Source: a virus (lineage: Duplodnaviria; Heunggongvirae; Uroviricota; Caudoviricetes). Taken from it: a DNA stretch of 10,443 nt. A program made the position numbers and the translations under genes. Below, piece by piece: positions 1 to 623 of the stretch (positions are counted from its first letter, which is position 1; each line of letters begins with the position of its first letter). Below the pieces are notes generated by a model. The model was not told the origin of the DNA. It saw only the letters and a list, made by a program, of their open reading frames with translations, and ran no database searches. The stretch is taken from positions 1 to 10,443 of the IMG/VR virus record IMGVR_UViG_2529292922_000021, one strand, 5' to 3'.

Positions 1-600
1 ATGCTTATTGGCTATGTCCGCGTATCAACAAATGACCAGAATACAGAATTGCAGCGTAACGCGCTGGAGTGCGCAGGATGTGAACTGATTTTTGAAGATA
101 AAATCAGCGGAACGAAATCAGCCAGACCGGGATTGAAAAAACTGATCAGAACGCTATCAGAAGGAGATACGCTGGTTGTCTGGAAGCTGGACAGACTGGG
201 CAGAAGTATGAAACACCTGATCACGCTTATTGAGGAATTGCGGGAAAAAGGTGTTAATTTCCGTAGTCTGACGGACAGCATTGACACATCAACACCCATG
301 GGGCGTTTCTTTTTTCACGTCATGGGGGCTTTAGCCGAAATGGAACGTGAATTAATTGTAGAGCGTACACTGGCCGGGCTGGCAGCAGCACGCGCACAAG
401 GACGCATTGGCGGACGTCGCCCGAAGTTGACAAAAGAACAACACGAGCAAATAGCGAGGCTGATTAAAAACGGTCATGACAGGAAACAACTGGCGATCAT
501 TTACGACATCGGCATATCGACGATTTATCGTTATCACCCTGTAGGCGATATACAGGCTGAAGAAACAACCAGGCAGACTCAGGAAAATGAAAACCGCTAA
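1..600 (+). CDS. pin: Serine recombinase, DNA invertase of the Gin/Pin/Hin/Cin family
   Basis: 199-aa ORF. N-terminus MLIGYVRVSTNDQNTELQRNAL is the canonical resolvase/invertase catalytic region with the active-site Ser in VRVSTNDQ; GDTLVVWKLDRLGRS and SIDTSTPMGRFFFHVMGALAEMERE are family motifs; C-terminal HTH (GISTIYRYH). Length and layout match Pin (e14) and Gin (Mu) as recalled, not searched. Confidence 0.9.
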   Translation: MLIGYVRVSTNDQNTELQRNALECAGCELIFEDKISGTKSARPGLKKLIRTLSEGDTLVVWKLDRLGRSMKHLITLIEELREKGVNFRSLTDSIDTSTPMGRFFFHVMGALAEMERELIVERTLAGLAAARAQGRIGGRRPKLTKEQHEQIARLIKNGHDRKQLAIIYDIGISTIYRYHPVGDIQAEETTRQTQENENR

Positions 601-623
601 TCTGACCATTAGCGGTTTTGCGT
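590..623 (+). terminator. Perfect 12-bp inverted repeat overlapping the pin stop codon; probable intrinsic terminator, possibly bidirectional
   Basis: AAAACCGCTAAT (590-601), 6-nt loop CTGACC, ATTAGCGGTTTT (608-619). The inner 8-bp stem CCGCTAAT/ATTAGCGG is followed by TTTT on the plus strand and by TTTTCATTTTCC on the minus strand. Confidence 0.45.

Follow-up and report, generated by a model that had tools for sequence, protein, structure and literature searches.

The serine DNA invertase gene at the start of the analysed DNA (the window, a 10,443-nucleotide stretch of a viral record) very probably belongs to a P88-like prophage. In this reading the tail-fibre segment lies just upstream of the gene, and the palindrome at the stop codon is a terminator of the phage backbone that stands outside the inversion machinery. 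The locus is of an ordinary, already known kind: a Gin-type system for tail-fibre inversion, partly in view, in a P2-family prophage that is common. The window represents the tail region of a P88-like (Xuanwuvirus, P2 family) E. coli prophage that is otherwise typical. The evidence comes from the family of the enzyme, its genomic context, the crossover sites, the occurrence of both orientations of the segment in nature and the conservation of the hairpin in phages devoid of the invertase. The features are listed in Table 1.

Table 1. Features of the window discussed in the text (positions in nucleotides of the window).
Feature	Position	Strand	Remark
Gin-family serine DNA invertase gene	1–600	+	ATG to TAA, 199 aa
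Predicted Fis-dependent recombinational enhancer	19–90		Position-for-position match to the annotated P1 cin enhancer
C-terminal tail of the invertase ORF (last ~19 codons)	541–600	+	Phage-backbone sequence beyond the shared invertase module
Perfect hairpin with 12-bp arms and 6-nt loop	590–619		Predicted bidirectional intrinsic terminator
gpU-type tail gene, 3' end	623–754	−	100% identical to locus L001 8623–8754, in an annotated 162-aa gene
ISEc21 (IS110 family) inserted in gpU	755–2128	+	Transposase ORF 1036–2112
Interrupted gpU, 5' part	2129–2495	−	Pfam Phage_P2_GpU, E 1.5e-37; collinear with loci L001 and L002
Rest of the tail operon: tape measure T, E/E', tube FII, sheath FI	2502–7576	−	Convergent with the invertase

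The product of the first gene is a small serine recombinase of the Gin/Hin/Cin/Pin family, as its domain layout, Ser9, size and closeness to invertases over resolvases demonstrate. It contains a Pfam Resolvase domain (residues 3–135, E 9e-52) followed by HTH_7 (residues 138–180, E 1e-12). The best match among solved structures is Mu Gin (4m6f, E 2.5e-91), gamma-delta resolvase being matched at E 2e-31, and the corresponding PHROG is annotated as 'DNA invertase' (E 4e-99). Global protein identity amounts to 73% with Mu Gin, 75% with P1 Cin and 82% with the invertase of phage P88, and reaches 95% with the invertase of an IncY P1-like plasmid. The domains, the structural match and the identity to Gin and Cin bear out the Gin/Pin/Cin assignment made in an earlier, sequence-only reading of this DNA. 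Ser9 is the nucleophile of Gin, and the substitution M114V renders Gin Fis-independent (PMC3575834). The strongest hyperactivating change in Hin, H107Y, affects the position equivalent to His106 (PMC4513852). Ser9, His106 and Met114 are all kept in the window invertase, and the protein therefore looks like a normally regulated enzyme. No sigma-70 consensus promoter is found in the 162 bp upstream of its ATG.

The DNA upstream of the gene is accessible in the source contig (GCA_000249095.2, contig AIEX01000038.1, designated L025), whose positions 163–10605 are 100% identical to the window. This contig starts only 162 bp before the invertase ATG, 81 bp into the segment. These 162 bp hold a gix-like 26-bp crossover site, TTCTCCCAAACCAACGTTTAAGAAAA, located at −81 to −56 relative to the ATG (L025 82–107) and composed of the halves TTCTCCCAAACC-AA-CGTTTAAGAAAA. 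Next to it, 81 bp form the start of a silent C-terminal exon of a tail fibre; on the minus strand, its open frame reads GLGE-GAPAIGVPFFWP... (also given as GLGE-GAPAIGVPFFWPSAAMPNTV...). Since the window begins at the ATG and the contig breaks inside the invertible segment, an ordinary invertase looked orphaned; the remark that no invertible segment was in view reflects the window edge. The segment is situated immediately upstream of the window, which therefore shows only the enzyme gene. The accompanying expectation of a crossover site just upstream of the gene is correct for this locus but not as a universal rule, because in P1 and P7 cixL overlaps the cin stop codon.

The complete segment is present in prophages with an identical or near-identical invertase, where ~1.9 kb separate two inverted sites. 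In locus L001, which is 100% identical to window 1–754, the left site (6044–6069, TTCTTGATTACC-TT-GGTTTGGGAGAA) falls within the tail-fibre gene H. The right site (7920–7945) has the same halves as that of the source contig, TTCTCCCAAACC-AA-CGTTTAAGAAAA, and is inverted relative to the left one. Between them lie the C-terminal part of H, the chaperone gene G, and an inverted second chaperone gene with a second H C-terminus. The 26-bp gix-like repeats flanking tail-fibre exons that were anticipated upstream of the window are consequently at hand, as the right site in the source contig and as both sites in L001. Both inverted sites are also found in loci L014, L016, L023 and L024, which, like L001, encode the identical invertase; the L001 and L024 genes match the window gene at the DNA level as well.

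The segment inverts in nature. An in-silico flip of the L001 segment at the central dinucleotides of its sites fuses H in frame to the alternative C-terminus, changing the length of H from 544 to 496 aa, and the junction computed in this way is present in E. coli EC02 with 100% identity. With a 300-nt query and a required coverage of at least 80% at one place, the flipped junction occurs in 9 genomes and the native junction in 105. Furthermore, loci L020, L022 and L023 all encode the identical 199-aa invertase, and the gene modules of L020 and L022 recur in L023 in reversed order and on the other strand. Both orientations are thereby observed exactly at the predicted crossover, as population evidence for the allele rather than for the source strain.

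For the source strain itself, the invertase could be a true orphan, with a truncated segment and a gene that survives as a relic without function or works on other prophages only, in trans. Decay of the prophage has already begun, with ISEc21 in gpU and a frameshift in gpD, and its contig breaks 162 bp upstream of the ATG, as IS-type repeats also break assemblies. There is a precedent in plasmid pS2122_1, in which IS26 lies ~250 bp upstream, and a truncation of such kind is seen in locus L002. Nevertheless, the source contig still has an intact right crossover site with the adjoining 81 bp of the silent exon, and its break could just as well stem from tail-fibre repeats or from a mixture of orientations. 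Moreover, both sites and the segment are retained in the sister strain L024, in which gpD has the same frameshift and the IS is absent. An orphan gene in the source strain is accordingly considered unlikely, and an invertase served by an adjacent tail-fibre segment is preferred.

The recombinational enhancer of such systems could be placed with the help of the GenBank annotations of P1 and P7, where it covers cin nt 19–90 and 19–86, respectively. The window matches P1 cin without gaps over nt 1–425, and within the 72 nt of the presumed enhancer identity is 79% to P1 and 81% to Mu. The scan for Fis sites employed the degenerate consensus GNNYRNNWNNYRNNC of the established literature. Two 15-mers stand out: GCGCAGGATGTGAAC at 71–85, which agrees at 7/7 positions, and TATCAACAAATGACC at 23–37, at 6/7. 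The scan covered eight invertase genes, among them Mu gin and P1 cin, and every one has sites at these two positions. The centre-to-centre distance of the two sites is 48 bp, the Fis-site spacing of invertase enhancers. From the centre of the crossover site to the first of them the distance is ~98 bp; the crossover-to-Fis-site distance in native Hin is ~100 bp (PMC3798978). Fis dependence and the exact Fis sites of the window enhancer are predictions.

An enhancer inside the 5' coding region had been expected by the sequence-only reading, and the predicted one agrees with the annotated P1/P7 position. The particular string put forward for it, GAAGATAAAATCAGC at 94–108, is present in the window but is the weaker candidate: it is located 3' of the P1/P7-equivalent stretch, scores 5/7 against 7/7 and 6/7, and fails at the −4/+4 positions. 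Possibly, this is a Fis-like sequence of an incidental or accessory kind within the coding stretch FEDKISG, which is conserved.

By homology with Mu Gin, invertase dimers would bind the two inverted 26-bp sites, one in H and the other 56–81 bp upstream of the ATG. The sites could then synapse on the Fis-bound enhancer in the 5' end of the invertase gene itself (nt ~19–90). The resulting ~1.9-kb flip would exchange the C-terminal receptor-binding part of H together with its assembly chaperone.

Downstream of the invertase, window 1–754 is 100% identical to several E. coli chromosomes. The gene order there is invertase, convergent gpU, tape measure, gpE, tube and sheath (minus strand), then gpD and ogr (plus strand); window 2129–8842 correspondingly comprises the 5' part of gpU followed by T, E, FII, FI and D. 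The gene had been described as followed by an IS rather than by phage genes, which does not apply, since the gene adjoining the invertase is gpU, with its 3' end nearest and ISEc21 inside it. The prophage copy is defective: the IS splits gpU, and gpD is frameshifted by a 1-nt deletion in an A-run, common to six contigs. Among complete E. coli genomes and plasmid records, none matches window 1–1035 over 80% or more of its length. The exact 35-nt invertase–IS junction pattern has no match in species-representative genomes, and the IS-truncated gpU ORF has no exact match on record; the product of the frameshifted gpD fragment does have one, in the source contig. The prophage is integrated beside a small gene for an HU/IHF-family DNA-binding protein and the pheT-pheS-rplT-infC-thrS cluster.

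The palindrome over the invertase stop codon consists of the arms AAAACCGCTAAT (590–601) and ATTAGCGGTTTT (608–619), separated by the loop ctgacc. The perfect 12-bp inverted repeat pointed out by the sequence-only reading exists as described, its arms being 100% complementary. Perfect 12-bp hairpins with loops of 3–10 nt occur twice in the window and in none of 200 shuffles, so the repeat is not due to chance. Its 5' arm overlaps the invertase TAA (598–600, plus strand), and the stop of gpU (623–625, minus strand) is only 3 nt away, so that the hairpin is placed between two convergent stops. The predicted folding energy is −16.9 kcal/mol (z −4.0) for the plus strand and −15.8 kcal/mol (z −2.7) for the minus strand. 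A terminator scan gives a match on the minus strand only, where the 12-bp stem, 3 nt past the gpU stop, is followed by CATTTTCC; on this strand the sequence features of an intrinsic terminator (stable hairpin, U-run, location downstream of a stop codon) are all found. On the plus strand the T-run past the stem is short (GGTTTTGCG): the TTTT of the stem is followed by GCGTTAAT, which is weaker, and relatives carry TTTTTGTGTT at this place. An Rfam search of the whole window at gathering thresholds yields no match.

Conservation points in the same direction. In an alignment of nine relatives the 10-bp core AACCGCTAAT/ATTAGCGGTT is invariant, and variation is seen in the loop (CTGACC, CTGGTC, CTGATC) and the flanks, the upstream flank being strongly divergent. 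Compensatory stem changes are not seen, all DNA relatives found being at least 90% identical at the hairpin. The hairpin also persists without the invertase. In phage PhiR44_2 the genes H and G are followed by convergent gpU with no invertase between them, and window 542–754 is shared, hairpin included; in phage Chuche a glycosyltransferase gene replaces the invertase, and 581–754 is shared, again with the hairpin. The palindrome is therefore a backbone element at the end of gpU and not a part of the invertase module. Every locus searched has a single copy of it.

Outside this group, Salmonella phage SEN5, of another Peduoviridae genus and with the convergent layout, has an unrelated GC-rich hairpin directly after gpU, with an A-tract at one flank and a weaker stretch rich in T and C at the opposite one. 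Two further loci of other genera, reached through gpU protein relatives, have no combination of hairpin and T-run immediately behind gpU; annotated cargo genes occupy this place in one, and the other is unannotated.

The palindrome is most likely a bidirectional intrinsic terminator shared by the convergent operons, as its position and sequence suggest. It would end two late operons, V-W-J-I-H-G(-invertase) on the plus strand and FI-FII-E-T-U on the minus strand, with the flanking A-tract and T-tract providing a U-run in both directions. The view of the sequence-only reading that a terminator is the simplest explanation is favoured by the convergent stops, the folding and the minus-strand scan match. 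Known bidirectional intrinsic terminators likewise have a stable hairpin shared between two stops, with an A-tract 5' and a T-tract 3'. Compared with them, the stem here is moderately GC-rich (4/12 GC pairs), and the plus-strand U-run is short in the window allele.

Alternatively, the palindrome could act at the DNA level, as the operator of a dimeric protein of the phage or the host, instead of as an RNA terminator. A symmetric, invariant stem devoid of covariation fits protein recognition of double-stranded DNA equally well. However, two convergent stops flank the palindrome, leaving no promoter there to regulate, and no promoter-like site is found in window 1–1100. The A-tract and T-tract beside the stem are typical of bidirectional terminators, the observed changes sit in the loop, which would be the operator centre, and the hairpin in the same place in SEN5 has an unrelated sequence. 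An operator is for these reasons highly improbable.

The resemblance of the AAAACC arms to gix/hix half-sites, raised by the sequence-only reading, would make the palindrome a cryptic or secondary recombination site of the invertase in an odd geometry, for instance a relic or a substrate of an inversion of the FI-U block. Read together with its flank, the left arm (TGAAAACC) agrees with a hix half-site at the inner 8 bases. Besides, a true crossover site overlaps the invertase stop codon in P1 and P7 (cixL), and the FI-U block of P88-like phages is inverted in comparison with a P2-type phage. The geometry nevertheless contradicts this origin: the AAACC and GGTTT elements of the palindrome are 18 bp apart, crossover sites having 2 bp, and the outer TTCTC/TTATC part of the half-site is lacking. 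At 575–635 nothing matches AAACCNNGGTTT even with 2 mismatches allowed, and with the same tolerance AAACC-NN-GGTTT occurs 4 times in the window against 4.9 by chance. The hairpin is kept in phages without an invertase and has one copy per locus, so a partner site is missing, and the convergent layout is common to several Peduoviridae genera, including members without an invertase. The probability of a recombination site is thus close to nil. The likeness arises because an A-tract and a T-tract resemble the A/T-rich inner half-site. A separate half-site-like sequence in the FI/D intergenic region, TTCTCCCGACCC at 7655–7666, was considered as an endpoint of the FI-U inversion and rejected, as one match is found where ~0.8 are expected by our own estimate, and its right half is mismatched.

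The location of the stop codon within the terminator stem has a simple origin. DNA similarity to the IncY plasmid invertase (96.5% identity) stops at nt 544, and similarity to PhiR44_2, in which the corresponding DNA is intergenic, starts at 542; the right end of the invertase cassette is therefore near 541–544. The last ~19 codons (VGDIQAEETTRQTQENENR) and the stop codon come from backbone DNA. The stop codon falls inside the stem because the ORF runs on into this DNA, which needs no special function. Over nt 1–544 the window allele is nearer to the invertases of IncY plasmids than to that of P88, which indicates module exchange. An ORF that borrows its final ~19 codons and stop from DNA that is intergenic in an invertase-less relative is a mildly instructive point.

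A further role of the hairpin, either as the fixed right-hand anchor of a cargo-exchange hotspot or as a structure masked by the terminating ribosome, is quite improbable. The first idea draws on the varied content next to the hairpin in P88-like phages, where the invertase cassette, a segment with sopE or a glycosyltransferase gene abuts it, or no module at all. In the second case, the stop codon in the 5' arm could lead to masking of the hairpin and so couple translation of the invertase to read-through antisense to the tail operon.

The system corresponds to the textbook tail-fibre host-range switch of the Gin/Cin type and matters little past correct annotation. It also calls for caution, as a window edge together with a draft contig break can mimic an orphan invertase, and a backbone terminator is easily over-read.

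In Mu, as here, the invertase gene follows the tail-fibre segment (the G segment) on the same strand, the proteins share 73% identity with Ser9/His106/Met114, the crossover site lies ~60–80 bp before the start codon, and the 5' coding sequence is conserved across the enhancer. The present system differs in its P2-like host phage, in the outer positions of its crossover sites (TTCTCCCAAACC-AA-...), and in the 19-residue C-terminal tail acquired from the backbone. Its gene converges on the tail operon, whereas that of Mu is followed by com/mom. With P1/P7 Cin the enzyme shares 75% identity, and nt 19–90 correspond base for base in position to the annotated enhancer, including GCGCAGGATGTGA(A/G)C. 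However, the P1/P7 segment is downstream of cin, with cixL over the cin stop, whereas here the segment is upstream and the hairpin at the stop codon has no cix-like core.

Among sequenced phages, the closest are P88 and further Xuanwuvirus/Gemsvirus members (P884B11, 503458, 520873, 500465-2 and Shae_phiSM), with 83–85% DNA identity over 1–754. They share the order H, G, inverted G' and H', invertase and convergent U-T-E-FII-FI as well as the same core hairpin, and differ from the window copy, which carries ISEc21 in gpU. In the P2-type phage from strain T22 (locus L004), the invertase is succeeded by the FI-U block, both on one strand; in the P88 group this block is inverted, and the invertase and gpU therefore converge.

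The prophage is defective, because gpD carries a frameshift and gpU harbors an insertion sequence. In gpD (window 7734-8842), one base is deleted from an A-run at ~8460, splitting the reading frame in two. The identical frameshift is found in six contigs, among them that of a sister strain lacking the IS, which rules out a read error and makes it a mutation of the lineage.

The flanks of the element in gpU, ISEc21, are ...CACAGCGTT on one side and CAAGGGTCAG... on the other, while the copy on pMAR2 (L033) is bordered by CACAGCGAT and CAGGGTAGTC. The similarity of the target on both sides of these two copies suggests sequence-specific targeting by ISEc21. 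Its leader (755-1035) had no match in Rfam.

Coordinates of features in the prophage window and in the sopE-encoding prophage L021
Feature	Sequence	Position	Remarks
ISEc21 (IS110 family)	window	755-2128	inside gpU; junctions 754/755 and 2128/2129
ISEc21 non-coding leader	window	755-1035	281 nt, 5' of transposase
gpD split ORFs	window	7734-8474 and 8471-8842	due to A-run deletion
ORF of gpD/ogr insert	window	9037-9702	221-aa protein, hydrophobic N-terminus
gix-like sites	L021	1342-1367 and 3920-3945	
sopE	L021	2758-3480	flanked by the two gix-like sites

An AT-rich insert of 968 bp (window 8853-9820), which is missing from the E. coli prophage locus L001 and from L002, separates gpD from ogr. 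The protein encoded by this insert matched nothing in Pfam, PHROG or PADLOC. Since sister contigs (L024 and L028) hold another ORF, of 167 aa, at the same position, the gpD/ogr site looks like a hotspot for cargo.

Cargo also varies at the convergent junction of G (the tail-fibre chaperone gene) and gpU in P88-like phages and related Peduoviridae (L001, L005, L006, L021, L030). Some members have the invertase cassette there and others sopE; Chuche has a glycosyltransferase, ST16-OXA48phi5.4 has DUF262-domain genes, and in PhiR44_2 the junction carries no cargo. Within the P88-like group (L001, L005, L006), its right edge is conserved and consists of the same core hairpin. The convergence of gpU with the tail-fibre operon, together with the divergence of FI and gpD, is the outcome of an inversion of the FI-FII-E-T-U tail block in P88-like phages (L003/L001) when compared with the strain T22 phage, which is of P2 type (L004). 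The ends of the inverted block showed no credible recombination sites.

The prophage in L021 (GCA_006344125.1) encodes the identical 199-aa invertase and also sopE, with SopE_N and SopE_GEF domains. With gix-like sites on either side, this type III effector gene lies within the tail-fibre segment that inverts. In the source strain, the draft contig (L025, 1-162 preceding the invertase) begins 81 bp inside the invertible segment; mixed orientations or repeats in the tail-fibre sequence would be consistent with a break at this point. More generally, active inversion may leave its mark as contig ends beside invertase genes.

In P1 (L011 956-975) and P7 (L010 956-975), the stop codon of cin is overlapped by cixL, a crossover site, and the DNA that inverts is located downstream of cin. 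IncY P1-like plasmids, e.g., pXJW9B263-2 (L013), are arranged as in Mu: their segment lies upstream of the invertase gene.
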